Shown: positions 33,074 through 60,636, counted from the stretch's first letter. The stretch: 64,000 nucleotides of DNA from Mogibacterium sp. (GCA_017510725.1 JAFWMD010000049.1:82478-146477), one strand, 5' to 3'. Notes: generated by a model from the sequence alone, not told the origin. A program made the numbers and translations.

Positions 33074-35419
33074 TCATTCAATGTGTATGCTGTTCACGAT
33101 CTTCTCCTGCAGCAATTTATCCCGGTCTGTGTATATACCATTATCTTCATAATCTAATGTTACTCTGATCAGCGCCTTCTTTTTGTCAAGAGGGATATAT
33201 AGTGTATATATATGTCTGTCATTTTTGAGTACTCCTTTTCCAACAGTATCCAGCATGGTTCCTTCGCTGTACCAGCAATCTATACCATCGATTGTTATTT
33301 GTTCCTTGATTGCTCCTGTGTACCTGTCAGAATTATTCATTTTGAAAAGGTCGTAATCAGCTGATTTTTCCGCACCCTTTATATAGACATAGTCTTCATC
33401 TTTATACTCATCCACCACGATAGTCATGCTGCACCATTTACCGTAAGCCCATCTCTGAGAATCATATTCCTCATCCCAGCCTTTTGTCTCAAGGTCAGCC
33501 GGAAATGTGAGGCTGATTCCTGCTACATTCTCAGTAGTTTCCTTATACTCAGGCAATATGGCCTCCTTCCCGGGCTCAGCTGTTATCCTGATGCTTCTGA
33601 TCAACGCCTTGCAGACTTTTCTGTTCTCCTCATTGTCAGGGCCATAGAATGTGAACTCATCGATCCATTCTCCTCCGGCTACCGGGATCATAATGTGATA
33701 ATAGTAGGTATCAGAATCATAAATGAATTCCTGATAACAAGACTCCGTTCCGTCTATAACTATATTTCCCTGACTTAGAATATCATAACTTTTATTATCT
33801 TTATTAGGCGTATGGTATTCATTCACAAGTCCTTTAAGACCTTCTTTATAAAAAATCTCATAAGCAGATTCGTTCGAGTCCCGGTCCCAGCGGTATATAC
33901 AAAAAGTTGCTCCGTTTGTGGAATCATCCGAAGCCCAGTACCATCCCAGTGATTCATCTTCAGATTCGATATTACTTTCAGAGCTTTTCCATCCTGCAGG
34001 TAAATCAAAGCTAAGGCCGTGATCTCTTTGCGGCCACGTTGTCTCCCGCACCTCAGTCGTCTGTTCATCAGCAGTCTGTTCTTCTGCGGCCTTTTCTTCT
34101 GAGGACTGTTCTCCTGATACCATCTCTTCAGCCTTCTGCTGTCCGAGCATGTTGATCACGGATGCAATAAGAGTCAAGGCTACGGCTATAACTGCCAGAA
34201 CGACCCATTTAGGCTTTCTGTTATTCTTTTTCCGATCGCTGAATGCTTTGCTCCTGACTTTACCCCCTGAGCCATTACTGCCTGCATGCTCATCACCTGA
34301 TAAACCGGCTTCCGGCTCATCAGGACTACCTGCCAGCGTCTCGTCCATGACAGTAGGTTCCTGCTCCGTCGGGATATCAAACATACCTAGGGTTTCATCC
34401 AGACTGTCTTCTTTTACAAATACCCGGGATTCTTTTTCTTCAGCCGGTTTTGCAGTAGATACAGCCTGAGATGTTTCCTCAGCGCTTTTTACTTCTGCGG
34501 CTTTTGGCTTGCTGCTGTCTTTACAGCTATTCTCAAGAGCGTTGAGGTCATTGAGGAGTTCCCTCGCGGATTTATATCTGTCCTTTCTGTCATAGGCACA
34601 GGCTTTCAGTATGATGTCTTTCAGCCTGCGGCTTCCGTTGACAGGATCCGGAAGTGTTTCTCCTAAAAGCCTCCTGATATTTGCTGCCTGCACTTCTGAA
34701 GCCAGCGGCGTATCATCCGTTGGTACGAATGGATGCCTCCTTTTGTTGAGCAGCCAGTACATTACAAGCCCGAGCGAGTAAACATCTGCATCCATTCCGT
34801 ATTCTTTTCTGGCTTCTATTTCCGGAGCCATAAAAGTAGGCGTACCCTTGAGAGATGCCATTGTAGTATGGTCCATCTCCCTCGCTACGCCAAAATCTCC
34901 GAGCTTGTATACTCCTTCGTCTGAAACAAGGATGTTATCCGGTTTGATATCACGGTGAATTATGCCCTTTTCTTCACAGAAAACGAGCGCTGACGAAATA
35001 TCCTTTCCGAGCTTTATTACTTCTTCTTCCTTTAATTCCCTGCGCATCCTGTAGAGGGAGCTGAGCAGCTCCATCCTGATGCAGACATCCGAGCCCTCAT
35101 CATCTTCATGAGGCACTTCACGGCAGTCATCGCATCTCACTACGTTAGGGTTTTGCTTCAGCTGGGACATCAGCGCATATTCCCTGAAAATATCGCTGAT
35201 TATCGAACGGCACCATTTGCTGACATCATAATTTGAATTGCGCAGGGTCTCCAGCTCATCTTCACTGGATGGCACACTAATAATTTTGAGCGCAGCTTTC
35301 TCCGTAAACCCGTAAGCGTTGCGCTCAATCTCATATACGCTTCCGAACGATCCCTGTCCGATGCGCCTTATTATTTTCCAGTCTTTCCATGGATTGGTGA
35401 TATTGCTGAAATCTTTCAT
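33074..35419 (-). CDS. Hanks-type Ser/Thr protein kinase, single TM, large (~330 aa) unassigned ectodomain (K7)
   Basis: GQGSFGSVYE, ALKIISVPS, HRDIKPDNILV, DFGVAR, FMAPE. TM (WVVLAVIAVALTLIASVINML). Its start overlaps the PP2C stop by 4 nt. Confidence 0.9.
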   Translation of the reverse strand: MKDFSNITNPWKDWKIIRRIGQGSFGSVYEIERNAYGFTEKAALKIISVPSSEDELETLRNSNYDVSKWCRSIISDIFREYALMSQLKQNPNVVRCDDCREVPHEDDEGSDVCIRMELLSSLYRMRRELKEEEVIKLGKDISSALVFCEEKGIIHRDIKPDNILVSDEGVYKLGDFGVAREMDHTTMASLKGTPTFMAPEIEARKEYGMDADVYSLGLVMYWLLNKRRHPFVPTDDTPLASEVQAANIRRLLGETLPDPVNGSRRLKDIILKACAYDRKDRYKSARELLNDLNALENSCKDSSKPKAAEVKSAEETSQAVSTAKPAEEKESRVFVKEDSLDETLGMFDIPTEQEPTVMDETLAGSPDEPEAGLSGDEHAGSNGSGGKVRSKAFSDRKKNNRKPKWVVLAVIAVALTLIASVINMLGQQKAEEMVSGEQSSEEKAAEEQTADEQTTEVRETTWPQRDHGLSFDLPAGWKSSESNIESEDESLGWYWASDDSTNGATFCIYRWDRDSNESAYEIFYKEGLKGLVNEYHTPNKDNKSYDILSQGNIVIDGTESCYQEFIYDSDTYYYHIMIPVAGGEWIDEFTFYGPDNEENRKVCKALIRSIRITAEPGKEAILPEYKETTENVAGISLTFPADLETKGWDEEYDSQRWAYGKWCSMTIVVDEYKDEDYVYIKGAEKSADYDLFKMNNSDRYTGAIKEQITIDGIDCWYSEGTMLDTVGKGVLKNDRHIYTLYIPLDKKKALIRVTLDYEDNGIYTDRDKLLQEKIVNSIHIE

Positions 35420-36240
35420 TCTCCCTGATCAGCTGTAACTTTACAGATCAGTATCGTGACGTTGTCACGGCCGCCGTTCTTAAGAGCCTCGACCAGAAGC
35501 GCCTGTGCTTTTTCCTCTTCGTCCTCATCTCCCATGAGGATCTCAGTGATCTTCTCCGGTGTCACCATGTCCGTAAGTCCGTCGCTGCTAATGAGCAGTG
35601 TATCTCCGTCCTTCAAGCTGTCCCTGAATATTGCAGGGACGACTCTCATCTCTCTGCCGTCAATACCGAGGTAACGGGTCACATAAGGCTTTCTTCCCGT
35701 GATCCCATTGAGCTTCATGGTTTCTGCGTCAGTGTGGTCCACGGAGATCTGCTCGAGCTCTCCATCCCTGAGCCTGCTGCACTTGCTGTCTCCTGTATTG
35801 CAGCACCAGACATCTCCATCATAGAAGTAGCACCCCACCATCGTGGAGCCCATCTGATTTACAGCTCTCTCGCTGCTCTCGGCAAACACGGCATCATTGA
35901 GTATCAGAGTCATATCCGTGAGCATTTCCGCGACATCCGTATAGTCATCCGGAACATGCTCGTCGAGGAATTCATATGTCTTTATCGCTGCCGTATAAGA
36001 AGCTATTTCGCCATACTGACCCCCTCCCATGCCGTCAAAAACAGCAAAGAAACAACCGTCGTCTTCCCCGTGTCCCGAAACCCTGCGGGTACAGGTCAGC
36101 ACGTATTCAAGGCCGTTGTTATCAGAGTCCATGAGCTTGCCGTCAAAGTAGAAATTGTCTTCGTTGTTGGCACGGCGCAGGCCTCTGTTGCAGGCACATG
36201 CAGCTGAAATATTGTAATCACATGAGTTGAAAAGACTCAT
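35416..36240 (-). CDS. PP2C-family Ser/Thr phosphatase
   Basis: FAVFDGMGGGQYGEIAS, NTGDSKCSRL, LLISSDGLTDMV, GGRDNVTILICK. Confidence 0.9.
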   Translation of the reverse strand: MSLFNSCDYNISAACACNRGLRRANNEDNFYFDGKLMDSDNNGLEYVLTCTRRVSGHGEDDGCFFAVFDGMGGGQYGEIASYTAAIKTYEFLDEHVPDDYTDVAEMLTDMTLILNDAVFAESSERAVNQMGSTMVGCYFYDGDVWCCNTGDSKCSRLRDGELEQISVDHTDAETMKLNGITGRKPYVTRYLGIDGREMRVVPAIFRDSLKDGDTLLISSDGLTDMVTPEKITEILMGDEDEEEKAQALLVEALKNGGRDNVTILICKVTADQGE

Positions 36241-36265: not shown

Positions 36266-38836
36266 TTATAATCTGACCGCTTCGAGAGCCTTACAGAGCT
36301 CTTCGATATCCTGATATCTTTCATCAGGGTCTATCCTCATACATTTCTCGATAACGGCCGCAAAATCAGATGATATATCATTATGATACTCGTGTGCAGG
36401 CTTTATGGCAAAGAAATTCAGACTCGGCCTTACCCCTGTCAGCAAATGATACAATGTTGCCCCTATCGCATATATGTCAGATCGAGGACCATACCCCTTT
36501 TGTATGCAGTCTATGAGGAATGACCTGTTATCAACAACCAGATCCAGCTGATCCTGTGGAAGTGTCTGTTCATCCGGAATCGCGGATGTTTCATCATCCC
36601 ACTCTGCCGCAACGGTTGCCTCATCCCAGTCTCCGGCTACTGTAGGTTCATCCCATTCCTCACTCCACATATCGCCGGATAAGGCCTTATCCAGATTGTT
36701 CTGTACCGGAGAAACAGCCGGCGGCGAAGTATTAGCGCTGTTGAGCAGACTTCGGCTGAGTTCGTCCGACAGTTTGCTGCTGAGATATCCTGATTCTACT
36801 TTGGCCTTGCTGAATGCCTCTACATCAACGCCTCGCTTCTGAAGCAGATTCAGGTAATTCTTTACAAATCCATACTGTTCGATTGGTGAGTAACCAGGGG
36901 TAGTACCTACCGACTTCACTGTCCCCTTGTCAATAATAGCCGAGATGTTGAAATCTATCAGGCATATATTCCCATCAGGTGTCAGCATTATGTTTCCGGG
37001 CTTGATATCGCTGTGTACGATAGCAGGCTGCATGTTGTGCAGGTATCTGACAGCGTCAGACAGCTGCTTTGCCCATATGAGGACGTATTTCTGTTCAAAC
37101 CTGCGCCCTTCCTTGAGATAGTCAGCAAAGCTCTTCCCAGGGACAAAGTCAGTAACAAGATACAGAGCCTGGTCGGCATCAAACACGTCATATATCTTAG
37201 GCAGATACATGTGCTTGACTCTCTTTAGCAATTCTACCTCGCGTTTGCCCGACACGGAGGTCTTCTGGTCGGCAGCTACCTTCTTCAGAACTACCTTTTC
37301 ATTCAGCCTTGTGTGCCATGCCGAGAACACCTCACCGAAGCCGCCCTTGCCTATCACATCAAGAACAGCATATGTATCATTGTAGATTATACTGTCCCCG
37401 ATACCTGCATGGATGACTCTGCTGATCCCGTTCTCACCAAAGCAGTCGTCAGGAACTTCAGAAGGATTGTCAGCTGCAAGAATAAACATTGCATTTCTGT
37501 CATCAGCTGTATTGCTGATAAAGTCCATCAGTTTCTGAGCTGTTTTTTTACCCGGATCACTTCCGAACAGCGAGTCAAAATGATTGATGAAGAAGCATGT
37601 CGGCTTATTGCTGTCGCATTTCAGTTCTATTTCACCACTGTCCGCCATCCGTCTCATGAGATCAGATGCATCCAGATACTCTATTTCCTGACTGAGCGAA
37701 GAGGAAAGATTCTCTACTACATACTGTTTATTCATTTCAGCATTGCCGTAGAGCAGTATCGTTTTTACCGGTTTTTTCCCCGTAAATATGACTTTGCTGT
37801 AGCTCTTTTCGCTGGAAAGTGTGCCGGCAATTGCTTCGATTTCTTCAGAGAAGTTCCTTTCTACATCTATCGCAGAAATGATCAGCTGGCCTGTGTTTGC
37901 TTCAAGATCCGCCTGTGACATTGCATTTGAGACCTTGAATGATGAGAACGGTCTTGTGATCACATATGCCAGGATGGTCTGTATCAGGACCTGAACGACT
38001 GAAATATTCACAGTAAGTCCGTCGACAAGGTTCAGCAGCGGTCCCGAGCCTGTCAGCAGCGCTGCCATAAGAGCAAATATCACTCCTTCACGAATATCAA
38101 GAGGGATCCTGGTGATCTTCACATTTTCGGATATCAGCAGTCTGCCGGCTATTATGGCAATGATCAGGTTAACTGCAATGACTACTATCAGCGGCAGCAG
38201 CATGCTTCCGGCCTGAGTGGCTCCGAACCCCAGATCAATACCTGCGATAACATTCTCCAGGTTTGATTTCATGCTCATGCCTTGCTGATTCCAAATGCTT
38301 AGCGGCTCCTCGTTAGCTATGTAGATGCCTGACACAAATCCCATAATTGAAAAAACTACCGCCGCTGTATATTTTGGGGAGCTGCTCATCTTATGTCCGC
38401 AAAAAACTATCAGGGTAAACAGCAGATATGCTGCTGCAGGTGAGCCTTCCTTCGAAGTCATCATACATAATGGGATCAGCATAAGTATCAGGCAGTGGAC
38501 CGACTTTGATATGACTCCTTCAAAAATCATAAGAACCGCAGCCACTGTAACAAGAATCGGAGCGGTCCCGCCTATCGTTATGAACAATGCGGCTCCCGAC
38601 AAGGCAACACCCAGTCCAGGGGATAACAGTGTCAGGGCAGCACATCCAAGCGATATAAGAATTACCAGCTGCCCCTCTACCAGGCCCGGCAGAGGTACTT
38701 CTCCAAGCTTGCTGTAAAAACTCAGCATCCTGAAAACGCCTGCACCGCATACTGCGGCGCAGACTATTTTCATGATGATCTCATATTTAACTTTTTTCAG
38801 GAAGAAATTATCCCATCTGAGTCTCAGATTATCCAT
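36266..38836 (-). CDS. Three-part fusion: polytopic membrane domain, degenerate AAA+ (SpoVK/CbxX/EccA-like) module, atypical Hanks kinase (K8)
   Basis: aa ~20-297 form multiple TM helices. aa ~345-465: VIFTGKKPVKTILLYGNAEMNKQYV ... CFFINHFDSLFG ... AQKLMDFISNTADDRNAMFILAADNP has the AAA+ layout with the Walker A/B residues lost. aa ~488-856: GKGGFGEVFS, VVLKKV, HSDIKPGNIML, IDFNIS, TPGYSPIE, SDIYAIGATLYHLLTG, with a WDE-repeat insert. Confidence 0.8.
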   Translation of the reverse strand: MDNLRLRWDNFFLKKVKYEIIMKIVCAAVCGAGVFRMLSFYSKLGEVPLPGLVEGQLVILISLGCAALTLLSPGLGVALSGAALFITIGGTAPILVTVAAVLMIFEGVISKSVHCLILMLIPLCMMTSKEGSPAAAYLLFTLIVFCGHKMSSSPKYTAAVVFSIMGFVSGIYIANEEPLSIWNQQGMSMKSNLENVIAGIDLGFGATQAGSMLLPLIVVIAVNLIIAIIAGRLLISENVKITRIPLDIREGVIFALMAALLTGSGPLLNLVDGLTVNISVVQVLIQTILAYVITRPFSSFKVSNAMSQADLEANTGQLIISAIDVERNFSEEIEAIAGTLSSEKSYSKVIFTGKKPVKTILLYGNAEMNKQYVVENLSSSLSQEIEYLDASDLMRRMADSGEIELKCDSNKPTCFFINHFDSLFGSDPGKKTAQKLMDFISNTADDRNAMFILAADNPSEVPDDCFGENGISRVIHAGIGDSIIYNDTYAVLDVIGKGGFGEVFSAWHTRLNEKVVLKKVAADQKTSVSGKREVELLKRVKHMYLPKIYDVFDADQALYLVTDFVPGKSFADYLKEGRRFEQKYVLIWAKQLSDAVRYLHNMQPAIVHSDIKPGNIMLTPDGNICLIDFNISAIIDKGTVKSVGTTPGYSPIEQYGFVKNYLNLLQKRGVDVEAFSKAKVESGYLSSKLSDELSRSLLNSANTSPPAVSPVQNNLDKALSGDMWSEEWDEPTVAGDWDEATVAAEWDDETSAIPDEQTLPQDQLDLVVDNRSFLIDCIQKGYGPRSDIYAIGATLYHLLTGVRPSLNFFAIKPAHEYHNDISSDFAAVIEKCMRIDPDERYQDIEELCKALEAVRL

Positions 38837-38854: not shown

Positions 38855-39355
38855 TTACTTCACCCTTATCTCGATACCCTCTTCTTCCATGCGGTTTACC
38901 CAGTTCATAATATTGCCGCTCATGCTGTCAATAACCATGCGTCTTTTACCTTTAACATAAATCTCATATCCGCCCCGGTCATCAACGCAGAAGTCGATAT
39001 CATGTATATCAATAGTTTTTCTGAATATCCAGAATCTGGAGGATGTCACCTTATCGCCATTAACTGTAACCTCCCAGAAGCCTTTAACCGGCAGGAGGAT
39101 AACGAAAATCCCAAGCAGGAACAGTCCTCCGAAGATAGCTATAAGATAGCCTTCCAAAGCACCGGCAATACTCGCCCCGATAATACAGAACAGGAAAAAT
39201 GCTGCTCCGATAATGCCTATTACCGAAATGGCTCTTCCGGGTCTCATATCAAATTGTTGGGTCGAATCGGTATTAATTGCATTTGATTTTCCGGACAACC
39301 AGCTCAATAATGCCGGAACAACAAGTGCAATTATAAGTATTGTTATTAAGCTCAT
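38855..39355 (-). CDS. Membrane protein, candidate immunity protein for the Rhs C-terminal toxin
   Basis: 166 aa with three hydrophobic helices (ITILIIALVVPALLSWL; VIGIIGAAFFLFCIIGASIAGAL; LIAIFGGLFLLGIFVILL) followed by a soluble tail. It starts 16 nt after the Rhs stop, on the same strand. Confidence 0.65.
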   Translation of the reverse strand: MSLITILIIALVVPALLSWLSGKSNAINTDSTQQFDMRPGRAISVIGIIGAAFFLFCIIGASIAGALEGYLIAIFGGLFLLGIFVILLPVKGFWEVTVNGDKVTSSRFWIFRKTIDIHDIDFCVDDRGGYEIYVKGKRRMVIDSMSGNIMNWVNRMEEEGIEIRVK

Positions 39356-39370
39356 TATTTCACCTAGTCA

Positions 39371-42300
39371 TTATGCAATTCGAAGTAAGCATTTTGTAAA
39401 ACCACCGGCTAATTTTTTGATATATGCACTTGGTTGTATCTTTTTTATGAATTCTTTTACAACTGCACCTTTTATATGCTGCCCGAAAGTATGCAGTAAT
39501 TCAGGCCCCCATGTTTTCGGGCTGCACACTTTAATAACACCAGCCAAATTACTTAACTGTCCCTCATAGAAGTCCTTCGCAGGATTTGCTGTCAGATCCT
39601 GGTACCATTTAGGCATAAAGGTCTTAAGCTTTTTCCCGATGGCTCCAACCGCGGCTCCAATAGCTGCATCGACTGCACCGCAGGCGATGGACTCTCCCCA
39701 GCCTTTTTTATCTACGAACTTTGCTTCGGCAAATCCTCCGACAAATCCTCCGGCTGCTCCAGCTAAAACAGGATTTCCGGTTAAGCCCAAAACACCACCT
39801 TCAACAGCTCCGCCAAGTGCAGATGTTCCAACTTTACCCCAATTTACATTCTTCAGGTTTACATTGCTTAATCCGCCTTCCTTGATCTGTCCGATAAGCT
39901 GCTTGCCGAGCTCCATGCCTCCGCCAACAACTGCTCCTCCAATTGCGCCGATGGCTCCTGCAGCTAAATGTGCAAGGAATCTGCCCTCAGGGTCATAGTA
40001 TGTAAAAGGCATATTCGCGCAGTAAAGATACGGATTCAGAGTTATCGGCCTGACGATATCGCCCTTAACAGGGTCCTGTCCGGCAAAGCGTCCATGCTCA
40101 GGCATGTATTCTCTGGCCTGAGCAAAATACATGTCTGCTGTCGGATCATTCCTGTATCCTATGTATCTCAGTGGCTGGATGCTGTTCTCTGGTTCGTAAA
40201 GAGATGTACCGAATTCATCGTATCCGTAAGTCTCCGCATTGCTTCCATCCATGCCGAGAAGTCTTATCGGGCTGCCTTTATCATCATTTATAACATTGTA
40301 ATCGGTTTCACCTTTAAGTGTTATAAATGTGCCGTCAAAGATATATGCTTCCGACTTACCGTTAATGCTTCTCTCAAACAGGTTGTTGAAGTACTTAGTC
40401 ATGTCGACTGTGTACTTGATCTTCCTGTCTGAATCCGCGCCTCCCAGAATCGTTTCTTCGATACGGTGTCCTAATCCGTTATATGTATAGGATGCTTTGT
40501 TTAAGCCGTTAGCTGCCTCTGCCAGTTTTCCTGCAGGATCATAAACATAGGAGTTGCAGGTCTTGCCATCAATGGCTCTCTCGATGACATTACCTCTCTT
40601 ATCATATCTGAAAGTTTCTTTTACCGGGCCGGCTGCTTCCAGCAGGCGGTCCATAGCATCATATGTATAACTGGTGCTGACACCACCGGATACCAACGAT
40701 TTTCTGTTTCCAAACGCATCATACTCATATGAGCGAAGCGCTGCCCCATTTTTCTTTACAGAAGCAAGTCTTCCGGTCGGATCGTAGCCAAACTCGAACA
40801 GTCCGCTTTCTTCAGGCAGTCCTTCTCTGAAGCGCTCAATCGATGTTCTCTCTCCGTTTGAATCGTAAGTGATACGGGAAGAATCCAGCAATTTTCCGTT
40901 CTGCATGCTTTTGATCTCAGTAAGAAGGCCTCTGTTATCATATGCATACGATGTTGCCAGCCCTGTTCCGACAGTCTTGCTTATAAGATAACCGTAATCG
41001 TCATATCCATAGCGTACATCTGTATCTCCCTCTTTCAGAGATGTCAGTCTCATTGCTTTATCATAACCATATGATACGACTCTGCCGTCAGGATGTTTTA
41101 CGCTGAGCCTCTCACCGGCCTTGCCATATGTATACTCTGCGGATCTGTTATCCGGATATATAACTTTAGTTATTCTGCCGAGGATGTCACTTTCAACTTT
41201 GGTTATTCCAGTCCAGTCACTGACCTCTGAAAGCTTGCCAAGAGCATCATGCTGCATCATGATCTCTCTGCCGTCATCATACTTTACAGAATTGAGTTCT
41301 CCGTTACGGTCATATCCATATTGTGTAAGGTAGCCGTCTTTATCTATTGCCTGAGTAAGCTCTCCTCTGCCATTGTACACAAACTTTTCTGTATACCCGA
41401 GAGGATCCGTAACAGATACGATGTTTCCGCAGAGGTCTCTGACACACTCTGTCTTGTGGATCTCGCCTTCTCCAATCTTTTTGATTTCGACAAGCATGTC
41501 GAGTGCATCATAAACGTATTCAGTTCTGCATCCGAGTTCATCGGTAACGCTGCTCAGTTTACCTGTCAGTGTGTATTCATATACATTCTTATTGCCATTG
41601 CAGTCGCAGGATGATGTCATATTGCCTACTGCATCGTATGTATATGTATTATTTGCACCATTATTGTCTCTGATTGCAATTACGTTGCCTACCGCGTCGT
41701 ATTCATATCTGACAGTATAGCCTCTGTTTGTGCCCTGAGATTCGAGTCTTCCGTTTATATCATAGGTAAAATACTGTTCCCTGCCATCCGGATATGCGAT
41801 TTTTGATGGCTTTCTGATCGAATCATATTCGATTGTAGTTACTCTGCCTGCCTCATCGATAACTTTTGAAACATCACCGTCAGGGGTATATGCATATTTC
41901 CTTGTTTCTCCAAGTGCATTCTTTTCGCAGATGAGCTGATCGGCGTCATCATATTCCAGATGCACTTCTCCGCCGTTTGCATCTTTGATATGTACAAGGT
42001 TGTTATTTGCATCATACTCATATTCAGTTTCATTACCTTCAGGATCCTTGACATAAATCAGATTGTCAAGATTATCGTACCTGAATTCTGCCACAGCTCC
42101 TTCAGGATCAATGCTGAATTTCAGATTGTTGTTACCGTCGTACTCAAAAGTGCTCTCATTACCCATAGGATCGATTTCCTTGGTAACATTGCCGTTTTCA
42201 TCATACTCGAAGTGAACGGTTGCACCATTTGGAAGCTTATGGGATGAGACATTCCACATGTCGTCATACTCTTCTTCCGTTATTCGGCCCAACGGATCCG

Positions 42301-44107
42301 TTATTCTGCTTACAAAGCCCAGCTTGTTGTACGAGAGTCGTGTAGTTGCCCCGTTAAAGTCGGTAAATTCTTCTATACTATTAATTTCATTAAATTTGAA
42401 ACGTCTCGAGTTTCCTGCTGCATCGGTGAAGCGTGTCAGATTTCCATATCTGTCATACTCATAATTGCTGGTATTGTTTGTGGCATCTGTACTGCTAATA
42501 ATTCTGTTGAGTTCATCATATTCATAAGATGTCCTGACACCCTGAGGATCCTTGAACCAGTTTAAGTTGCCTTTTTCGTCATAGCTCAGTTCAACAGTTC
42601 TTCCGCTTGGAAGTCTCATCTCAGTCGGAAGCCCTTTTTCATTATATTTATATGAGACCTTTCTTCCGAGTGCATCTATAGCCTCCAGCAGATTTCCCTT
42701 GCTGTCATAAGCATTTTTGATCTTACGGACACCATTAACTGAAATCGTAACTGGTTTGTTATGCTTCTCGTATGTCATATTAATGACTACACCATCTGGC
42801 CTTACTATTTTACTTATATTGCCACGGTTGTCATACTGATACTTGATCTCATTCTCATTGAGGTCCTTTTCGGATGTCACGAGGTTTTTGTCATTGTATT
42901 CAAATGACTCTGTACCATTTGTATATACATTATCGGTATTCCTTAACAGCTCATCATGGAAGTGATAGCTCTCACTGCCATTCTTCTCTGTTATGGTCGT
43001 AGCAGCATTCTCCTTGTCATATGTATATCTCATTTCTGAGCCATCAGGGAAAAATTGCCTTGATACTCTTCCCTCATCATCATATTCGTTGTGAACAACT
43101 GTTACGCCTCTTGAATCTACTACATCACTTAAGCAGCCTGAACTATCATAATCAAATTTAACGACTCTGTCGCCGCTGGTAACAGATGTCAGATTCCTCC
43201 CATTATACTTATAAAGTATGCTTCTGCCTGAGTGGTCTGTTACAGATTCTATATGATCCGGGTTTTCCTCAGAATACGTAAACTCAAATGAATCGCCATT
43301 ATCTCTGATAACTTTGATAAGTTTTCCTGCTTCATATTCGAGATCATATCCGAATCCGTTGGCATTTTCTGCTCTTAGAAGCGTTCCCTGCTCATCAAAA
43401 ATGGACAGGTCATTGTCGATCGTTGTGTAATGATATTTCCCATCGATAACTTCAAGTGTAGCTGTACCACCCAGAGCAACATAATTTTTATTGTCTTTCG
43501 TAAAGACTTCCTCCGAGCCGTCGCCAAGTCTTACAGCGGCACCTTGTTCATTGATACTGATCTGCATCTCGTAATTATGAGTCCAGCCCAGACCAAATGC
43601 ACCGTTATTTGTATCACTTGAGTTATAGAAACGTGTCAGTGTGAACGGTGTTTCTGTTCCCATCTGAAGATCATCAATTTCCAGTATAAAGTTACCTGAT
43701 TCTACTGCAACAGGATCTCCTACATACTTATTCCACCATTTTTTACCTTTACCCCAAATATCCTGAATAGTTGCTCCGCCTATAACCAGCCCGCCACCTA
43801 TGATCTTGGCCAGGTCGCCAAGACTCATTTTTTTATTGCGCTGATTCTTGATAGCTATTTCAGTTATCTCATAATGCGATGCTATTGCCTGAAGATTGGT
43901 GCGGATCTTGCTTGTAGCTCCCTGTATCACTTCAAGCTTTTCATTACTCTTTTTCAGGGTGCTCTTGATCTGGCCGGTGCTGTTTCCGATATTGACATTA
44001 TTCATTACACTTGTAATTTCCATGCTGGCCTTTTTCAGCCCCAGCCATGAGGTGCGGATATCGCCCGTCGATCCTTTAAGCTTCTTCGTTCTGACTTTGA
44101 ATTCCAT
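39371..44107 (-). CDS. Rhs/YD-repeat polymorphic toxin with T7SS-type N-terminal helical domain and glycine-zipper C-terminal toxin domain
   Basis: Dozens of YD repeats (YxYDxxGN/R..., e.g. YKYNEKGLPT, YEYDELNRII, FEYDENGNVT). Core-end motif PFTYYDPEGRF. The last ~201 aa (39374-39976) are rich in GxxxG runs (AAGAIGAIGGAVVGGG, GGAVEGGVLGLTG, AGAAGGFVGGFA, AAIGAAVGAIG). The N-terminal ~100 aa are helical and resemble 29311..30297. Confidence 0.9.
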   Translation of the reverse strand: MEFKVRTKKLKGSTGDIRTSWLGLKKASMEITSVMNNVNIGNSTGQIKSTLKKSNEKLEVIQGATSKIRTNLQAIASHYEITEIAIKNQRNKKMSLGDLAKIIGGGLVIGGATIQDIWGKGKKWWNKYVGDPVAVESGNFILEIDDLQMGTETPFTLTRFYNSSDTNNGAFGLGWTHNYEMQISINEQGAAVRLGDGSEEVFTKDNKNYVALGGTATLEVIDGKYHYTTIDNDLSIFDEQGTLLRAENANGFGYDLEYEAGKLIKVIRDNGDSFEFTYSEENPDHIESVTDHSGRSILYKYNGRNLTSVTSGDRVVKFDYDSSGCLSDVVDSRGVTVVHNEYDDEGRVSRQFFPDGSEMRYTYDKENAATTITEKNGSESYHFHDELLRNTDNVYTNGTESFEYNDKNLVTSEKDLNENEIKYQYDNRGNISKIVRPDGVVINMTYEKHNKPVTISVNGVRKIKNAYDSKGNLLEAIDALGRKVSYKYNEKGLPTEMRLPSGRTVELSYDEKGNLNWFKDPQGVRTSYEYDELNRIISSTDATNNTSNYEYDRYGNLTRFTDAAGNSRRFKFNEINSIEEFTDFNGATTRLSYNKLGFVSRITDPLGRITEEEYDDMWNVSSHKLPNGATVHFEYDENGNVTKEIDPMGNESTFEYDGNNNLKFSIDPEGAVAEFRYDNLDNLIYVKDPEGNETEYEYDANNNLVHIKDANGGEVHLEYDDADQLICEKNALGETRKYAYTPDGDVSKVIDEAGRVTTIEYDSIRKPSKIAYPDGREQYFTYDINGRLESQGTNRGYTVRYEYDAVGNVIAIRDNNGANNTYTYDAVGNMTSSCDCNGNKNVYEYTLTGKLSSVTDELGCRTEYVYDALDMLVEIKKIGEGEIHKTECVRDLCGNIVSVTDPLGYTEKFVYNGRGELTQAIDKDGYLTQYGYDRNGELNSVKYDDGREIMMQHDALGKLSEVSDWTGITKVESDILGRITKVIYPDNRSAEYTYGKAGERLSVKHPDGRVVSYGYDKAMRLTSLKEGDTDVRYGYDDYGYLISKTVGTGLATSYAYDNRGLLTEIKSMQNGKLLDSSRITYDSNGERTSIERFREGLPEESGLFEFGYDPTGRLASVKKNGAALRSYEYDAFGNRKSLVSGGVSTSYTYDAMDRLLEAAGPVKETFRYDKRGNVIERAIDGKTCNSYVYDPAGKLAEAANGLNKASYTYNGLGHRIEETILGGADSDRKIKYTVDMTKYFNNLFERSINGKSEAYIFDGTFITLKGETDYNVINDDKGSPIRLLGMDGSNAETYGYDEFGTSLYEPENSIQPLRYIGYRNDPTADMYFAQAREYMPEHGRFAGQDPVKGDIVRPITLNPYLYCANMPFTYYDPEGRFLAHLAAGAIGAIGGAVVGGGMELGKQLIGQIKEGGLSNVNLKNVNWGKVGTSALGGAVEGGVLGLTGNPVLAGAAGGFVGGFAEAKFVDKKGWGESIACGAVDAAIGAAVGAIGKKLKTFMPKWYQDLTANPAKDFYEGQLSNLAGVIKVCSPKTWGPELLHTFGQHIKGAVVKEFIKKIQPSAYIKKLAGGFTKCLLRIA

Positions 44108-44134: not shown

Positions 44135-45733
44135 TCAGATATAAGTTATTTCTTCGTTTGCTACACTGATCAAATCTCCGGAGATCAGTCTGATACCATT
44201 GCCTGTGACCCTCTGACCGTTAAGGTAGGTTCCGTTGATCGAGCCCATGTCATGAATGAAATATGTTCCCTTGCGGTTCTCGATCATTGCATGCATTTTT
44301 GCAACATACTCATTACCTTCAATACAGATATCTGCATCGCGGCTCCTGCCGATGGTCATGATATTCTTTTTAAGTTCGTATACCGCGCCTGTTCGTCTTA
44401 CGATTGCTCTTGGTACATTTTCATTATTGCCATTATCCGGCTCCGGTCGAAGAACAGCTGCAGGCATTACCTTATCAGGTGCAGCCTTTACCGGTGCCGC
44501 TTTTGCCGGTGTCGCTTTCACAGGTGCAGCCTTCTCAGGTTTTTTAGCTGCCGCCTTTTGCTTTTTTTCTTTTACCGGTTTCTGTTCTGCCGGCTTGTTC
44601 TTCTTTCCTTTTTTTTGAGGTGCTGCCCCCGGATTGTCTGCTTCATATCTCCTGTTCCATATCACAAGTGTGACAAGCTTGAATACCAGGAAGGCAATGA
44701 GCGCTCCAAGTGCAATTATGAGGTATAGCAGCTTTGATGGCTTGAGTTCGGAAGTATCAAGTGTGGTCTGGAGCTTACTGAAAGCACCCTGAAGGGCTTT
44801 GCGGTTATATCGCGATTCTCCCATGACTTTGATAGCATTCTGTATCGCATCTTTAAAATCGTCCTTATATTCTTTTTTGACCTTCTTGTAAGTTCCGATG
44901 CTCTGATCGCATAATTTATAGAGTTTGCCATACAGAGCGTCTTTGTCTTTGGTCTGATGTTGTATGCCTGCACTGTCAAGAAGTTTATCTGCTTCCTGTA
45001 TCAGAAGTGCGCAGCTGCCATCATCCCCTGAAGCTTTTGGATTGTTAATACCGATTACGTAGCCATGCTCATCTACGAGAGGGCCTCCATCAAGGCCTCC
45101 GCTGATGTCTGCAGTATGGCTTATATATGTTGCGCTGTCTTTTTTGAGCGCCATGGACTTTATGGTCCCTGTATTCACTTTTACATCTGAGGCACTGAAC
45201 TCTGTCCCCGAGGCAGCTTCGGAATTAAAACCTAGAGCTTTGACCTCTGCACCCTCTGACAGTGTATCGCCTTCTTCGTCATATTCCGTTATTCTGAGCG
45301 GCAATGCCGTCTTGCCGTTCAAACCTCCCGCACTGATTATGCAGAAGTCCTGCTCGACGCTGTATGATTCTACCAATGCGTCAACAGCTGTATCGTTCTT
45401 GACTATTACATGGATGGCCGCGTCCTGTCCATGATTGACATTATGCCATGTAGTGACTATGTATACGCCACCGTTTCCGGTATCACCTACAACAAATCCG
45501 CTGAAGGTATGATCAGCTTTGAACTTTCCATTTGTATCGTTGATTCCGGTCACTATCCGTACTACCCCGGTTGCAGCATCTACATCAGAAACCGTCTGTG
45601 GCTCTGCCAGTCCGTTCATCTCACTGTGGGAAGATGCCGCAAGGGCAGCCTGCGGCATGATGATCATTATCAGCGCGATCATAAACGCAAGGCTGCCCGT
45701 TATTCTTTTTCTGATTCTTTTTGTTTCGATCAT
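44135..45733 (-). CDS. Bitopic protein: extracytoplasmic trypsin-like (probably inactive) domain, TM, Lys/Ala/Pro linker, cytoplasmic FHA domain
   Basis: N-terminal anchor/signal (LAFMIALIMIIMPQAALA). His (VTTWHNV) and Asp (EQDFCII) are present, but the GxSGGP serine box reads GGLDGGPL (Asp codon GAT at 45091..45089). Second TM (LLYLIIALGALIAFLVFKLVTLVIW). C-terminal FHA: MTIGRSRD...AKMHAMI...GSINGTYLNG. Confidence 0.8.
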   Translation of the reverse strand: MIETKRIRKRITGSLAFMIALIMIIMPQAALAASSHSEMNGLAEPQTVSDVDAATGVVRIVTGINDTNGKFKADHTFSGFVVGDTGNGGVYIVTTWHNVNHGQDAAIHVIVKNDTAVDALVESYSVEQDFCIISAGGLNGKTALPLRITEYDEEGDTLSEGAEVKALGFNSEAASGTEFSASDVKVNTGTIKSMALKKDSATYISHTADISGGLDGGPLVDEHGYVIGINNPKASGDDGSCALLIQEADKLLDSAGIQHQTKDKDALYGKLYKLCDQSIGTYKKVKKEYKDDFKDAIQNAIKVMGESRYNRKALQGAFSKLQTTLDTSELKPSKLLYLIIALGALIAFLVFKLVTLVIWNRRYEADNPGAAPQKKGKKNKPAEQKPVKEKKQKAAAKKPEKAAPVKATPAKAAPVKAAPDKVMPAAVLRPEPDNGNNENVPRAIVRRTGAVYELKKNIMTIGRSRDADICIEGNEYVAKMHAMIENRKGTYFIHDMGSINGTYLNGQRVTGNGIRLISGDLISVANEEITYI

Positions 45734-45791: not shown

Positions 45792-46109
45792 TTATGCGAA
45801 GATCTCTGAATTCAGTGAAGAAGCTGTCTGAGTTGCTTCATTTTCTGCTCTCTCATACTCTGCTGCCATCTCATTGAGGTCCTTTACATGTTCCTGAATC
45901 ATTTTATCGATCTTCTGGATCTCATCCTGGAGGCCATTGAACTTGTTAGCATATGCAGTTGCTGCATCGCCCGACCATACGGAGCCTGAAAGCTGCCCGA
46001 CTGTCTGTGTCATAGTGTTTGTAGCGTTCTTGATCTGTGCGCTTGTGTTGGAAAATTCACTTGCTGCTGCTTTGAGTCTAGAGGTTTCAACCTTAATTGT
46101 ATTTGCCAT
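45792..46109 (-). CDS. WXG100-family (EsxA-like) protein 5 of 5
   Basis: 105 aa helical hairpin; W-x-G in SVWSGDAATAYANKF. Confidence 0.88.
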   Translation of the reverse strand: MANTIKVETSRLKAAASEFSNTSAQIKNATNTMTQTVGQLSGSVWSGDAATAYANKFNGLQDEIQKIDKMIQEHVKDLNEMAAEYERAENEATQTASSLNSEIFA

Positions 46110-46200
46110 TTTTCTGTCTCCTTTTCTATTTCAAGACTGTGAGGTCTGTTGTTTCCTGAAAGTTTTTTATTTAAGTCCCTATCCGGTTTTAAGTTCGGTT

Positions 46201-46500
46201 TTATACGGTTCTTGCATTTGCTGTGCTTACGTTCTTGTTCTCAGCCACATCATACTTGTCTGCAATTGTATCAAGTGCTGATGCATACTGATCTATAGCT
46301 GCACAGAACTCTGTCATTTTAGCAATGTCTGTTGAGAATGCGTTTCTGAACGAGTCACGTGCTTCACCTTCCCACATTCCGCTGAGTGAATTCTCCTGTG
46401 CTCTCAAATTTTCGATCTGGTTTCTGACATTGTTGTTCTGACTTCTCAGATCTGCTGCCTTGTCTCTGAGCTGCTGCGATGTTACCTGAATAAGTGCCAT
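46201..46500 (-). CDS. WXG100-family protein 4 of 5
   Basis: 99 aa; W-x-G in SGMWEGEARDSF. Confidence 0.88.
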   Translation of the reverse strand: MALIQVTSQQLRDKAADLRSQNNNVRNQIENLRAQENSLSGMWEGEARDSFRNAFSTDIAKMTEFCAAIDQYASALDTIADKYDVAENKNVSTANARTV

Positions 46501-46568
46501 TTGTTTTTCCTCCTGTTAATTAGTTTTAGATTTATGGATTAAGTTAAATTTTATATCGTTTTTTGGTG

Positions 46569-46925
46569 TTAGCCCCTGCGGCCGCCTCCGCCGCCTCCGC
46601 CGCCTCCACCGCCGCTGTAAGTTCTCATGTCGGCGATTCTCTTGGCTTCCATCTCTGCATCGTAGATGGTCTTGGCGTTTTTCCTTATAGCTGCTGCTGT
46701 CTTTTCCAGGTTGCTTGCTATTTTATCAAGATCTTCGGAGACCATGCCCATCTTATTGGTGAACTTTGACGCGTTGTCTCCTGTCCAGGCGGATGCTACG
46801 TCGCTTCTGCAGCTGCTGAAGCGATTACTTTCCTTTCTAAGGGTTCTTGCTGCATCTTCAAGTCTGCTTGCCTGGTTTTTGGACTTCTGGAAGTCCATGT
46901 TTATCTGAAAACTACTTTTAGCCAT
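46569..46925 (-). CDS. WXG100-like protein 3 of 5 with poly-glycine C-terminal tail
   Basis: 118 aa; W-x-G in ASAWTGDNASKF. C-terminus YSGGGGGGGGGGGRRG is encoded by (GCCGCCTCC)x3-type repeats at 46581-46616. Confidence 0.8.
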   Translation of the reverse strand: MAKSSFQINMDFQKSKNQASRLEDAARTLRKESNRFSSCRSDVASAWTGDNASKFTNKMGMVSEDLDKIASNLEKTAAAIRKNAKTIYDAEMEAKRIADMRTYSGGGGGGGGGGGRRG

Positions 46926-46937
46926 TTCTGCCTCCTA

Positions 46938-47249
46938 TCAGAATATATCATCCGGTAAACTGTTGCCTACTGCTGCTGCTTCCTGTTCTGCTGCTTCATA
47001 CACGCCTGCTTCCATCTGAAGTTTTACAGGATTTTCATTCAGTCTCTTGAGAACCTTTTCTACATCCGGCTCTATATCCCTGAAGATTTTGATGTGTGCA
47101 TCGCTCGCCTCTCCTTCCCAGTAGGTTTTGGTGTTCTTTATCAGCTGGCAGATGCTTTTCCAGTGTCTCTCTATGTTTTTTACGTCATTTCTCACCAGGT
47201 TTGACTGATCTTTCATGACGTTGGTGTCTACTCTAAGATTGATGCTCAT
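46938..47249 (-). CDS. WXG100-family protein 2 of 5
   Basis: 103 aa; W-x-G in KTYWEGEASDAH. The C-terminal ...NSLPDDIF resembles ...SSLNSEIFA of 45792..46109. Confidence 0.85.
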   Translation of the reverse strand: MSINLRVDTNVMKDQSNLVRNDVKNIERHWKSICQLIKNTKTYWEGEASDAHIKIFRDIEPDVEKVLKRLNENPVKLQMEAGVYEAAEQEAAAVGNSLPDDIF

Positions 47250-47259
47250 GTCTATCCCC

Positions 47260-47565
47260 CTATCTCACATGTATCTGATTGACAAGGTCCCCGACCTTAC
47301 TTTCGCAGTTATTATATTTGGTTCTGGCGTTTTCTTCGAAACGGTTGATTCCCTCGAGGGTTTTGACCACTTCCTCCATCGCCTTGATGTCTGATTCAAA
47401 ATTGATCTTGAATGCCTCACTGGCCGGGCCGTCCCACATTCCGTCAAGTACTCTGTTGTGGTTCCTCAGATCGGTAATCGCCTTCTGGATCGCCTTGATA
47501 TGATCTCCGAATTCCTTCAGGTCTGTATCAAGTCTGTTTGTGTTGACTTTAATTAAATCTGCCAT
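47260..47565 (-). CDS. WXG100-family protein 1 of 5
   Basis: 101 aa; W-x-G in DGMWDGPASEAF. Confidence 0.88.
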   Translation of the reverse strand: MADLIKVNTNRLDTDLKEFGDHIKAIQKAITDLRNHNRVLDGMWDGPASEAFKINFESDIKAMEEVVKTLEGINRFEENARTKYNNCESKVGDLVNQIHVR

Positions 47566-48036: not shown

Positions 48037-48285
48037 CTATACCAGGATGAGTCTGTCGGCATCTCTCACGCCGCTTTCGTACAGTGTTCGGTCAGCTGAG
48101 AGTGGCATTCTTTTGTCTGTGTAGTACAGAACAAATCCGTCATCGCCCGGTTTGAGCTCGCTCTTGGTCCTCCTCGCGATCATCTCCGTCACCTCAAGTA
48201 TGACGACTTCAAGGTCCGCATTCTCATCGAGCATAAAGTCGAAACTCTCGTCCAACGCAGGCATATATATGTCTACCATTATCAT
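48037..48285 (-). CDS. esaB: YukD/EsaB-like ubiquitin-fold T7SS protein
   Basis: 82 aa; MIMVDIYMPALDESFDFMLDENADLEVVI...YYTDKRMPLSADRTLYESGVRDADRLILV fits the YukD beta-grasp pattern. It has a 4-nt overlap with the upstream gene and lies in the essC/WXG100 context. Confidence 0.8.
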   Translation of the reverse strand: MIMVDIYMPALDESFDFMLDENADLEVVILEVTEMIARRTKSELKPGDDGFVLYYTDKRMPLSADRTLYESGVRDADRLILV

Positions 48286-48950
48286 TGTGATTTACCTCCT
48301 GCCCAGCTTCTCATAATTTCTTTTATACTTTCCATGGTGAACATCTCTCTCATTGAAAATGTCCGGCTGTTTTGTATAATCATCCCATATGTGCCGCAGT
48401 CGAAAAGCATAAGCTTCTCCAGCAGCTTCCCGTCCGGAATGCTGCGCACAGCAAACTCTGATATCAGGTCGCCATTCTCGGGAAACATGTGCTCCGCGTC
48501 CATGTCCGGAGGAGCCTCCATTACCTTAGGGAGGTATCCTCCCTTTTCGAACATTGAGATCCATTCATCTGCGGACATCAGCGTCAGTTTGATCTCATCG
48601 GTTCCCAGCAGGCTTCTCTCGCTGATAACTACCCTGCCATCGCTGCAGTAACTCCCGATGTCGGAATTCTGCTCTCTTAAGTTTGTACTTGTAATACATA
48701 CCGGAGCGCTCCTCAGGACATCAAACACCGGCCTTACATTGTCGGATACCCTTGCCTTGCTCTCTCCCCACTCTATCAGGCCTTTGCGGTACAGCCCGGC
48801 GATACATCCGTTGAGCCTTATATCATCATTTGCAAAGCCTGTATCTCCGCTGAGTTCTATGCCGTACCATCCGCTGATTCCTGCTGCGGAGAGAAGGAGA
48901 ATGAACTCTTCATTATTCAGTATCAATGTTTCTGCTGCCCGAAATTCCAC
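48282..48950 (-). CDS. T7SS-associated cytoplasmic protein of unknown function
   Basis: 222 aa with no TM, located between the LytTR gene and yukD. The start may be internal, because it overlaps the upstream gene by 38 nt. Confidence 0.6.
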   Translation of the reverse strand: MEFRAAETLILNNEEFILLLSAAGISGWYGIELSGDTGFANDDIRLNGCIAGLYRKGLIEWGESKARVSDNVRPVFDVLRSAPVCITSTNLREQNSDIGSYCSDGRVVISERSLLGTDEIKLTLMSADEWISMFEKGGYLPKVMEAPPDMDAEHMFPENGDLISEFAVRSIPDGKLLEKLMLFDCGTYGMIIQNSRTFSMREMFTMESIKEIMRSWAGGKSQ

Positions 48951-56991: not shown

Positions 56992-57594
56992 CTACTTTTC
57001 AATATTGAAAGTAAACTCTACATCGGCAAATTTTATCCTGTCTCCGTCATTGACAGGCATCTGCTGAGTCTTAGGTACTGGTACTCCGTTCACGGTGGTT
57101 CCGTTTTTGGAGTTATCTACTATAAAATAATTGCCGTCTCTTTCATAGAAAGTCGCATGCAGCCTGCTGATCTTCTGACTACCCGGAATCATGTAATTAG
57201 AGCTGTTAAGGCTTTTGCCTACAGAGAACAGATCTCCTGTGCACTCTATCCTGTATCCATCAGAACATCTTGTCAGTACTACTTTGCATTGCGGCTTTTC
57301 TTCCATGAAGAACGGCAGCGTTTTATCATCATCATCGTCATCAACCGGTACAGTTGCATCATCATACGAAGCAATGGTTTTCTCATCGTAAAAATCATCA
57401 TCTACTTCAGGGACCAGAACCATGTTCTGAGGTGTCACTGCAGGTCCCTGGTTGTATGCTTCAGCGCGGACGTCGGACGGGCTGCTGCCGGCACTGTCAG
57501 TTTTACTTTTCTTTTTATTTCCGCTAATCACCGCAAAAATAATACCACCGACTATAACCACGGTAGCTAAAACTGCAATCCATACTTCTGCCAT
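56992..57594 (-). CDS. N-terminally membrane-anchored FHA-domain protein
   Basis: TM VWIAVLATVVIVGGIIFAVI followed by KKKSK. C-terminal FHA: FSVGKSLNSSNYMI...ISRLHATF...NSKNGTTVNG. Confidence 0.88.
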   Translation of the reverse strand: MAEVWIAVLATVVIVGGIIFAVISGNKKKSKTDSAGSSPSDVRAEAYNQGPAVTPQNMVLVPEVDDDFYDEKTIASYDDATVPVDDDDDDKTLPFFMEEKPQCKVVLTRCSDGYRIECTGDLFSVGKSLNSSNYMIPGSQKISRLHATFYERDGNYFIVDNSKNGTTVNGVPVPKTQQMPVNDGDRIKFADVEFTFNIEK

Positions 57595-58581: not shown

Positions 58582-58593
58582 TTATCCACCTCC

Positions 58594-59397: not shown

Positions 59398-59409
59398 TTT
59401 TCTTATGTC

Positions 59410-60633: not shown

Positions 60634-60636
60634 ATC

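Follow-up and report, generated by a model that had tools for sequence, protein, structure and literature searches.

In the type VI secretion system (T6SS), secretion is controlled by threonine phosphorylation through PpkA, PppA and Fha1. Among the type VII secretion systems (T7SS), those termed T7SSc-j were described with membrane kinases (TsxD), PPM phosphatases (TsxF) and FHA proteins (TsxJ), and a phosphorylation-based regulation of these systems was proposed (Garrett, Higginson & Palmer 2024; PMC11217815). TsxD was reported to contain an N-terminal kinase followed by one transmembrane (TM) helix and an extracellular C-terminal domain, and TseD was also reported to contain one TM helix (PMC11217815). 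In T7SSb, the N-terminal FHA region of EssC binds the EssB pseudokinase (PMC9600267, PMC11217815). In Actinomycetales, a pathway leading from a kinase to an FHA protein and controlling Esx was shown experimentally, and the Esr pathway linked to Esx contains a MoxR AAA+ protein, a vWA protein, a kinase, a phosphatase and an FHA output (PMC13622651). The present analysis deals with a gene at positions 36266-38836 of a 64,000-nucleotide (nt) stretch of Mogibacterium sp. DNA (GCA_017510725.1, JAFWMD010000049.1:82478-146477), the whole of which is called the window. The product of this gene, here called the target, was found to contain a polytopic membrane module followed by a degenerate AAA domain and a C-terminal Ser/Thr kinase domain, and the gene was found to lie within a T7SS operon. 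Judged from its sequence and its neighbours, the target is probably the regulatory kinase of an atypical T7SS, that is, a non-RD Ser/Thr kinase which is integral to the membrane and catalytically competent and whose phosphorylation would be read by FHA domains and reset by a PP2C phosphatase.

Comparison with described secretion-linked kinases

The target was found to resemble TsxD (T7SSc/d/e/j) in its position in a T7SS locus with FHA-EssC, YukD, several WXG100 proteins and Rhs, in the intact active site of its kinase, in the adjacent PPM/PP2C partner and in the presence of FHA proteins nearby; two of its homologues (P0070 and P0075) were found to adjoin DUF6382-FHA (TsxJ-like) genes. However, the kinase of the target is C-terminal and stands behind about ten TM helices and an apparently dead AAA domain with no ectodomain, TsxD being compared here by its description only. 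The target locus was also found to contain LytTR-domain and trypsin-FHA proteins, which are absent from the T7SSc-j lists. From its gene content the locus appears to be an atypical T7SS of the non-canonical kind catalogued in PMC11217815, and it may lie outside the published T7SSc-j types. Mogibacterium does not occur in the main text of that article, and Mogibacterium, Anaerovorax, Lachnospiraceae and Eubacterium do not occur in a part of its supplementary files.

A membrane kinase together with a PP2C and FHA readers was found beside a secretion machine, as in T6SS PpkA/PppA/Fha1 and in Esr, and the Esr module also contains an AAA+-family component. The AAA+ protein of Esr is a separate and active MoxR protein whereas the target contains a classic AAA domain, and the sensor of Esr is a surface beta-propeller whereas the target contains a polytopic module with short loops.

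The same comparison was made with EssB/YukC of T7SSb, which is also a kinase-fold membrane protein in a T7SS locus where EssC contains an N-terminal FHA domain. EssB lacks the catalytic residues, is single-pass and contains an extracellular domain, whereas the target was found to keep all the catalytic residues. No match to the YukC/EssB family was found in the Pfam scan, and membership of this family was rejected on the missing family match, the intact active site and the polytopic topology.

Integrity and rarity of the gene

An initial annotation of the window, made from the sequence alone, had placed the open reading frame (ORF) at the correct coordinates, and the strand was established here as minus, the plus-strand reading of 36266-38836 being full of stops. 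The ATG of the ORF was found to be preceded by a ribosome-binding-site-like AGGACGAG. The product was identical to P0001, a protein of a Mogibacterium sp. metagenome-assembled genome (MAG) which is annotated by NCBI only as "serine/threonine protein kinase".

Five full-length homologues (P0002-P0006) with 57-76% identity were found to contain the same uninterrupted architecture. When 1.84 billion representative proteins (clusters at 50% identity) were searched exhaustively by HMMER with residues 1-487 as query, only 26 matches were obtained, and the arrangement of membrane module, degenerate AAA domain and kinase was found in ten of them. The first of the ten (P0069), 60% identical, represents the target's own clade; beyond the five close homologues, nine further representatives with the target architecture were found at 30-60% identity. 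All ten architecture representatives were found to carry HSDIKPxN and DFN in the kinase, and a Walker A motif was present in none of them (0/10).

The possibility that the ORF is an assembly or frameshift artefact fusing two or three genes, which had been raised in the initial annotation, is refuted, its probability being negligible, because the uninterrupted architecture recurs in 15 homologues at 30-76% identity, in independent assemblies from different samples and sources. The ORF is one real three-domain gene and its architecture is very rare, so that the earlier description of the domain combination as rare and uncharacterised was upheld. The other checks proposed with that annotation, namely a domain scan, an architecture search, a structure prediction and a survey of the neighbours, supported the three domains and brought out an FHA-rich T7SS operon which the annotation had missed.

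Kinase domain

Pfam Pkinase was found to match from residue 489 (E-value 2.4e-40, 139 bits vs a cutoff of 31.7). In Foldseek the kinase fold matched Stk1, PknB and PknA best, with a TM-score of 0.73-0.75 on the target, and the search with the full model gave kinases only. The domain was found to contain GKGGFGEV, K518 and E533 followed by the presence of HSDIKPGN at 608 (D610, K612, N615), DFN at 628 and SPIE at 650 (E653), in agreement with the motifs and with the retained catalytic and metal-binding residues of the initial annotation. The residues G496xG498G499, K518, E533, D610, K612, N615, D628, E653, D787 and R840 were invariant across ten members down to 30% identity. The RD-type Arg and the Gly of DFG were not present; the family reads HSD and DFN there without exception, which places the domain in a non-RD subclass that is still Hanks-type. 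Among the orthologues P0002-P0006, identity was 87-93% in the kinase catalytic core, 51-72% in the AAA remnant and 44-76% in the membrane module. The invariance of the catalytic residues, together with a catalytic core more conserved than any other part of the protein, makes it likely that the kinase is an active enzyme and not a pseudokinase.

The species genomes of GTDB were scanned with the patterns HSDIKP[GA]N and Y[SA]PIEQYG, and at least 537 loci were confirmed, the best 80 of which were all from Clostridia-type genomes. The kinase was N-terminal in 79 of these best 80 loci, the proteins being mostly 630-1100 amino acids (aa) long, and most of the 45 of these proteins inspected were found to contain one hydrophobic segment at about residue 280-470. 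The target architecture was found in the remaining one of the 80, an Anaerovoracaceae MAG (L005, on the same contig as L001). The single-pass kinases contained DFN in 77 of 79 cases and DYN in the other two.

The kinase domain of the target was 39-50% identical to the single-pass HSD/DFN kinases (E-values 1e-50 to 1e-81), whereas its similarity to seven HRD/DFG kinases of its own window was marginal (E-values 1e-4 to 1e-7). In the window and in five other loci with the target architecture, the only HSD-type motif was that of the target or its homologue. The single-pass kinases of Clostridia (Lachnospiraceae, Oscillospiraceae and others) were found to share with the target HSDIKPxN, DFN, [SA]PxEQY, a Thr-rich acidic insert and a position after EssC, LytTR and WXG100 genes, whereas their domain order and anchor are inverted and they contain neither an AAA remnant nor a polytopic module. 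In the Lachnospiraceae loci L006, L048 and L020, EssC was followed by LytTR, five WXG100 genes, (trypsin-FHA, PP2C) and a single-pass HSD/DFN kinase, EssC itself lying outside the examined stretch of L020. The EssC-LytTR-WXG100 core was seen to recur in many Lachnospiraceae/Oscillospiraceae loci (L006, L020, L048, L084).

The HSD, DFN and SPxEQY motifs and the acidic insert thus appear, by comparison of the sequences, to be traits of a large clade of Clostridia kinases that is often T7SS-linked. In nearly every member of this clade the kinase stands N-terminal, with one TM helix and an ectodomain behind it. The initial annotation had rightly noted an acidic WDE insert of about 100 aa in the kinase (residues 657-768), and these oddities were found to be clade-wide and not peculiar to this protein. 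The HSD/DFN/SPxEQY signature would mark T7SS-linked kinases across gut and oral Clostridia.

Degenerate AAA domain

The Pfam model AAA (PF00004) was found to match residues 360-464 (E-value 2.6e-5, 25.1 bits vs a gathering score of 21.2). In a sequence search of the PDB the best solved relatives were Vps4 (E-value about 1e-3), Cdc48 and the proteasomal Rpt subunits, and Foldseek with the N-terminal model aligned p97, Cdc48, Vps4 and an i-AAA protease over about 165 columns (root-mean-square deviation 3-4 A, E-value 4e-5, probability 1.00). The AlphaFold model contained strands at residues 359-363, 384-389, 413-418, 449-455 and 473-476, with a predicted local distance difference test (pLDDT) score of 82-93.

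In a column-by-column alignment, the domain was found to be colinear with the intact first AAA domain of three membrane proteins (P0080, P0082 and P0087), the two AAA domains of which contain the Walker A sequences GPPGTGKT and GPPGCGKT, respectively. At the Walker A position the target was found to contain GNAEMNKQ where the relatives contain GPPGTGKT, and at the Walker B position the acidic pair DE was replaced by NH (FFINHFD vs ICFDEIE of the relatives), which bears out the loss of both motifs reported in the initial annotation. The sensor-1 Asn was replaced by Asp (TTNNP of the relatives vs AADNP of the target) and the Arg-finger sequence RPGR by GENG (RPGRFD of the relatives vs GENGIS of the target). 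The kinase N-lobe starts about 10 residues past beta-5, so that the helical lid and its sensor 2 are missing.

No match to EccA, CbxX or SpoVK models was found among NCBIfam/TIGRFAM at an E-value of <=0.01, and no TPR domain was found in the target by Pfam. Because of the losses seen in the alignment and the lack of an EccA/CbxX/SpoVK match, the domain is read as a truncated, dead remnant of the classic AAA clade and not as an EccA-type domain; its catalytic death is read from its residues. The AAA assignment of the initial annotation was therefore kept and its SpoVK/CbxX/EccA label was dropped, membership of that group being rejected on the missing model match, the missing TPR domain and the best matches to Vps4, Cdc48 and i-AAA. 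The target and EccA, a CbxX/SpoVK-like protein of T7SSa, both present an AAA-family domain in a T7SS context, whereas the domain of the target is membrane-tethered, single, truncated and apparently inactive, and is without TPR.

The proposal of the initial annotation had been a membrane scaffold which couples an EccA-like, nucleotide-independent module to phospho-signalling, and a dead AAA domain and an intact kinase are what the sequence presents. As an explanation of the gene, an EccA-like AAA scaffold that would handle T7SS substrates as a chaperone or dock, with a coupling to phospho-signalling, is nevertheless very improbable. The AAA-derived domain is real and would be nucleotide-independent, and the locus is that of a T7SS, a cytosolic AAA+ protein, EccA, being present in T7SSa (PMC11217815). 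However, the best matches are to Vps4, Cdc48 and i-AAA and none is to EccA, CbxX or SpoVK, and the loss of the lid and of the Arg fingers makes the formation of a hexamer doubtful. The single-pass orthologues stand at the same locus position with no AAA domain, so that the remnant would not be needed for the T7SS role of the clade, and it appears to have come with the membrane module from membrane-AAA-AAA proteins.

The three double-AAA proteins were found to share with the target the membrane module with its motifs and a colinear first AAA domain. Compared with these proteins and with the classic AAA proteins (Cdc48/p97, Vps4, FtsH), the target differs in its replaced ATPase motifs, in the lack of a lid and in the presence of a kinase in place of the second AAA domain. 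From this alignment the AAA domain of the target appears to descend from the first AAA domain (D1) of a small membrane-anchored double-AAA family. The simplest history that the sequences suggest is that the T7SS kinase of the Clostridia clade was grafted behind the membrane module and AAA-D1 core of a membrane-AAA-AAA protein. In this simplest history the lid of D1 and the second AAA domain of the donor would have been displaced by the graft, as would the single-pass anchor and the ectodomain of the kinase. The grafted form is found in the Mogibacterium/Anaerovoracaceae lineage and in a few others. The target would then be a clear case of an AAA domain kept as a non-catalytic adaptor after domain replacement.

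Membrane module

The many hydrophobic helices placed at residues ~20-297 by the initial annotation were recovered as about ten TM helices between residues 15 and 297, both by hydropathy and in two AlphaFold models. The model of residues 1-487 had a mean pLDDT of 81. An N-in/C-in topology with no ectodomain is predicted, because basic residues were found to fall in loops predicted as cytoplasmic and no modelled external loop exceeds about 32 aa.

The module of the target was found to contain the motifs R5-x-x-W8-D9, D247-I-R249-E and A290-Y-x-x-T-R295-P296-x-x-S299, the family forms of which are R-x-K-W-D at the N-terminus, D-I-R-[DE] at 247-250 and A-Y-x-x-T-R-P-x-A-S at 290-299. All three conserved motifs map to the cytoplasmic face. 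In an alignment of 23 of the 26 HMMER representatives over the module, R295 was invariant, and R5, P122, D247, F254 and P296 were conserved in >=90% of the sequences.

No match to the module was found in Pfam, NCBIfam or PADLOC. The top 50 Foldseek matches of the N-terminal model were all AAA proteins and contained no structural relative of the module and no EccD. A word-index search with the 23-sequence alignment gave P0090 only, hydrophobic words having probably swamped the index. The matches of PADLOC were at the level of domains only (generic defence kinases, ThsB-like TIR, IetA/TRIP13 AAA), and no defence system was assigned because nothing was matched to the membrane module.

The module was found to be joined to two intact AAA domains in P0080, P0082 and P0087 (Pfam AAA E-value about 1e-85), directly to a TIR domain in P0079, P0081, P0084, P0085 and P0086, and to one degenerate AAA domain in P0090 and P0091. 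It appears from these joins to be a portable, previously undescribed module which stands N-terminal to variable cytoplasmic domains and is common to TIR and AAA proteins. The membrane-AAA-AAA relatives (L086, L087, L089, L090) and the membrane-TIR relatives (L088, L091) were from uncultured bacteria, on contigs of 2-7 kilobases (kb), and no T7SS gene was seen on these short contigs. Their few neighbours were rimP-nusA, RyR/EamA genes and a PBECR4 nuclease-like gene, which adjoins one of the relatives.

The T7SS locus

The target was found in a tightly packed minus-strand operon between Rhs/DUF6560 and PP2C (Table 1). The operon contained two FHA proteins and one zinc-ribbon protein followed by FHA-EssC, LytTR, a 222-aa protein, YukD, a 120-aa protein and six WXG100 proteins, and then by trypsin-FHA, Rhs, DUF6560, the target, PP2C and a canonical kinase. 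The gene order was the same in the orthologous loci L001 and L003, apart from the toxin cassette. The PP2C gene also adjoins the homologue of the target in L001/L002 and lies within 5 kb of it in L003.

The cassette between trypsin-FHA and the kinase was found to be variable. It contained Rhs and DUF6560 in the window and in L001, whereas a 455-aa protein and a DUF4176 gene were present at L003:8245-9982 in place of the Rhs/DUF6560 genes (38855-44107). Because L003 swaps the cassette yet keeps the kinase, the kinase is tied to the secretion machine and not to the Rhs toxin. The initial annotation was right in the position that it gave to the gene between the Rhs pair and PP2C, and the functional tie to the Rhs/immunity pair was rejected on the swapped cassette. 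A relative with 30% identity (P0073) was also found downstream of EssC and WXG100 genes.

No member of the EssB/YukC, EsaA or EssA families was detected among the T7SS locus genes scanned, so that other membrane components would be needed. The target, with its ten or so TM helices, could be one of them, namely a structural core subunit of the T7SS membrane complex resembling EssB/YukC and EccD, in which the kinase fold would serve for docking and catalysis would be secondary or dispensable. The gene position is constant while the toxin cassette varies, and EssC contains an N-terminal FHA domain as in T7SSb, where the EssB pseudokinase is bound (PMC9600267, PMC11217815). We consider this explanation unlikely. 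The catalytic residues, invariant to 30% identity and set in the most conserved part of the protein, are unlike those of EssB-type pseudokinases, and a PP2C gene is adjacent. The top 50 Foldseek matches of the N-terminal model, all AAA proteins, included neither EccD nor any other membrane protein, and some family members (P0076, P0075) lie outside T7SS loci.

Acidic insert and FHA domains

The insert between SPIEQYG and subdomain IX was found to contain 22 acidic and 8 basic residues (residues 657-768), and the pLDDT was <50 over residues 681-768. Its repeats (WSE/WDE/WDE/WDD) start at residues 724, 728, 737 and 746, and T732 and T741 were invariant in six orthologues. No tandem repeat was found by Tandem Repeats Finder at the DNA level beneath the WDE region.

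In the kinase clade the insert was 35-177 aa long (33 members with both flanking motifs located), and its Thr content was 11.7% vs 4.0% in the rest of the kinase, followed by an enrichment of acidic residues as well. The clade inserts were often seen to consist of tandem units, for example DTADEE[RK]TVLLS in seven copies and EDD[RT]TE[TV]LPRE in about five (e.g. L016, L017). A Thr motif was defined as an acidic residue, 0-2 residues and T-x-[LVIA][LVIA], and its counts were compared with those of composition-preserving shuffles. In 34 single-pass inserts the motif was found 110 times vs 10.9 +/- 3.8 in the shuffles (about 10-fold), and in the ten polytopic family members 28 times vs 1.7 +/- 1.5, being present in nine of the ten. 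The WDE repeats appear to be the version, in the target, of an acidic-Thr motif shared across the clade.

The two stand-alone FHA proteins were found to contain the signatures GRS...SREHA...NG and GKS...SRLHA...NGT, and EssC was found to contain GK...SRHHA...NG. Several FHA domains of the locus keep the phosphothreonine-binding signature, which makes the threonines of the insert plausible (auto)phosphorylation and FHA-docking sites, a role that the conserved Thr repeats of this disordered segment could have.

Proposed function

Under the reading that the target is the regulatory kinase of the T7SS, the external loops, predicted to be <=32 aa, and the lack of an ectodomain suggest that reception of the signal would take place within or at the membrane, the input being intramembrane or cytoplasmic. 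The AAA remnant, presumably unable to bind or hydrolyse ATP, would be a rigid adaptor between the membrane module and the kinase. The kinase would phosphorylate the threonines of its own insert (T732, T741) and/or components of the T7SS, and the phosphothreonines would be read by the FHA domains of EssC, trypsin-FHA and the two stand-alone FHA proteins. This reading by FHA domains would assemble or activate the secretion machine, and the adjacent PP2C would reset the system.

Several observations weigh against this reading. Kinase activity could be lowered by DFN in place of DFG and by Ser in place of the HRD Arg. The Thr motif was defined post hoc and its counts are inflated by tandem repeats, and the +3 position in the target is Gly/Ala and not the Ile/Leu/Val that many FHA domains favour. 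In the trypsin-FHA domain the Ser that would bind phosphate was found to be Ala, and GK stands in place of GR in two other FHA domains. EssC, WXG100 or LytTR genes were found within 10 kb in 26 of the 79 single-pass loci, many of the contigs being short. P0076 was found to lack T7SS and FHA genes within 10 kb, and P0075 lies beside Tad-pilus-like genes and not beside EssC; because of these two members the T7SS link is described as frequent and not as universal. In the locus of P0075 (L096:1-9578) the gene was seen downstream of TadE, DUF5702, a prepilin peptidase and WG_beta_rep and DUF6382-FHA genes, with no EssC within 10 kb.

Members of this kind would also fit a general envelope- or threat-sensing kinase of a signalling island, which would sense the state of the membrane and have outputs not specific to the T7SS, the adjacency being circumstantial. 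Nine Ser/Thr kinases and two PP2C genes, an exceptional density, were found in a segment of about 20 kb of the window (18504-38836) just downstream of the T7SS genes. The module was also seen joined to TIR domains and to active AAA domains in proteins around which no T7SS genes were visible, a pattern typical of modular sensor-effector proteins. We hold such a general role to be quite unlikely. The gene is packed in the T7SS operon, from the substrate cassette to PP2C, in three lineages and in a relative with 30% identity, and the kinase clade was found to hold the same position in many T7SS loci of Clostridia. The target was also the only HSD/DFN kinase of the window.

With the target taken as the regulatory kinase of the T7SS, the same T7SS kinase is found on two anchors, one single-pass with an ectodomain and the other polytopic with no ectodomain, which would imply different input signals for the same output. 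As a tentative and, taken as a whole, rather doubtful extension, the portable module may sense perturbation of the membrane or envelope, or may oligomerise, and may pass the signal to TIR, to a double-AAA unfoldase or, by way of the AAA remnant, to a kinase. The firing of the T7SS would then answer an intramembrane cue, and the Thr repeats would form an autophosphorylated FHA platform which recruits EssC and its partners. Such a platform, if real, would be the phospho-dependent counterpart of the contact between the EssB pseudokinase and the EssC FHA domain in T7SSb.

Features of the window

Table 1. Positions of the target, its parts and the neighbouring genes in the window.
Feature	Position	Strand	Basis or remark
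Whole ORF, 856 aa and stop	36266..38836	minus	Membrane module, apparently dead AAA domain, Ser/Thr kinase
Polytopic membrane module, residues 1-299, about 10 TM helices	37940..38836	minus	Hydropathy and AlphaFold
Cytoplasmic linker, residues 300-344: long helix, disordered 310-326, first helix of AAA-like domain	37805..37939	minus	AlphaFold
Degenerate AAA alpha/beta subdomain, residues 345-480, five parallel strands	37397..37804	minus	Pfam, PDB search, Foldseek, alignment
Hanks-type Ser/Thr kinase domain, residues 488-856	36269..37375	minus	Pfam, Foldseek
Disordered acidic insert, SPIEQYG to subdomain IX, residues 657-768	36533..36868	minus	AlphaFold, composition
'WDE' repeats, residues 724-750, three or four copies of W-[DE]-[DE]-x-T-V-A-[AG]	36587..36667	minus	
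Canonical HRD/DFG Ser/Thr kinase, 781 aa	33074..35419	minus	Overlaps PP2C stop by 4 nt
PP2C/PPM phosphatase (Stp1/IreP-like)	35416..36240	minus	25 nt downstream of target
DUF6560 membrane protein	38855..39355	minus	Candidate immunity protein for Rhs toxin
Rhs/YD-repeat toxin, N-terminal DUF6531	39371..44107	minus	Candidate T7SS substrate
Signal peptide, trypsin-like protease, TM segment, cytoplasmic FHA domain	44135..45733	minus	Kept in L001, L003
WXG100 array	45792..47565 (45792-46109, 46201-46500, 46569-46925, 46938-47249, 47260-47565)	minus	
YukD/EsaB-like ubiquitin-fold protein	48037..48285	minus	
LytTR-domain protein	48913..49662	minus	Directly after EssC
FHA-EssC/FtsK-SpoIIIE ATPase, 1679 aa	49659..54698	minus	
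Stand-alone FHA protein, two FHA domains	55868..56953	minus	
Stand-alone FHA protein	56992..57594	minus	

One WXG100 paralogue (46569-46925, minus strand) was found to end in a poly-glycine tail (...YSGGGGGGGGGGGRRG). The kinases encoded at 18504-38836 included two PASTA kinases and one kinase with a C-type lectin domain; the other seven kinases checked in this region were HRD/DFG, and HSD/DFN was found in the target alone. The T7SS was found to be flanked by cell-wall polymer/teichoic-acid genes (57748-62760, minus strand), which encode a CDP-glycerol glycerophosphotransferase, a LicD-domain protein and an ABC ATPase.

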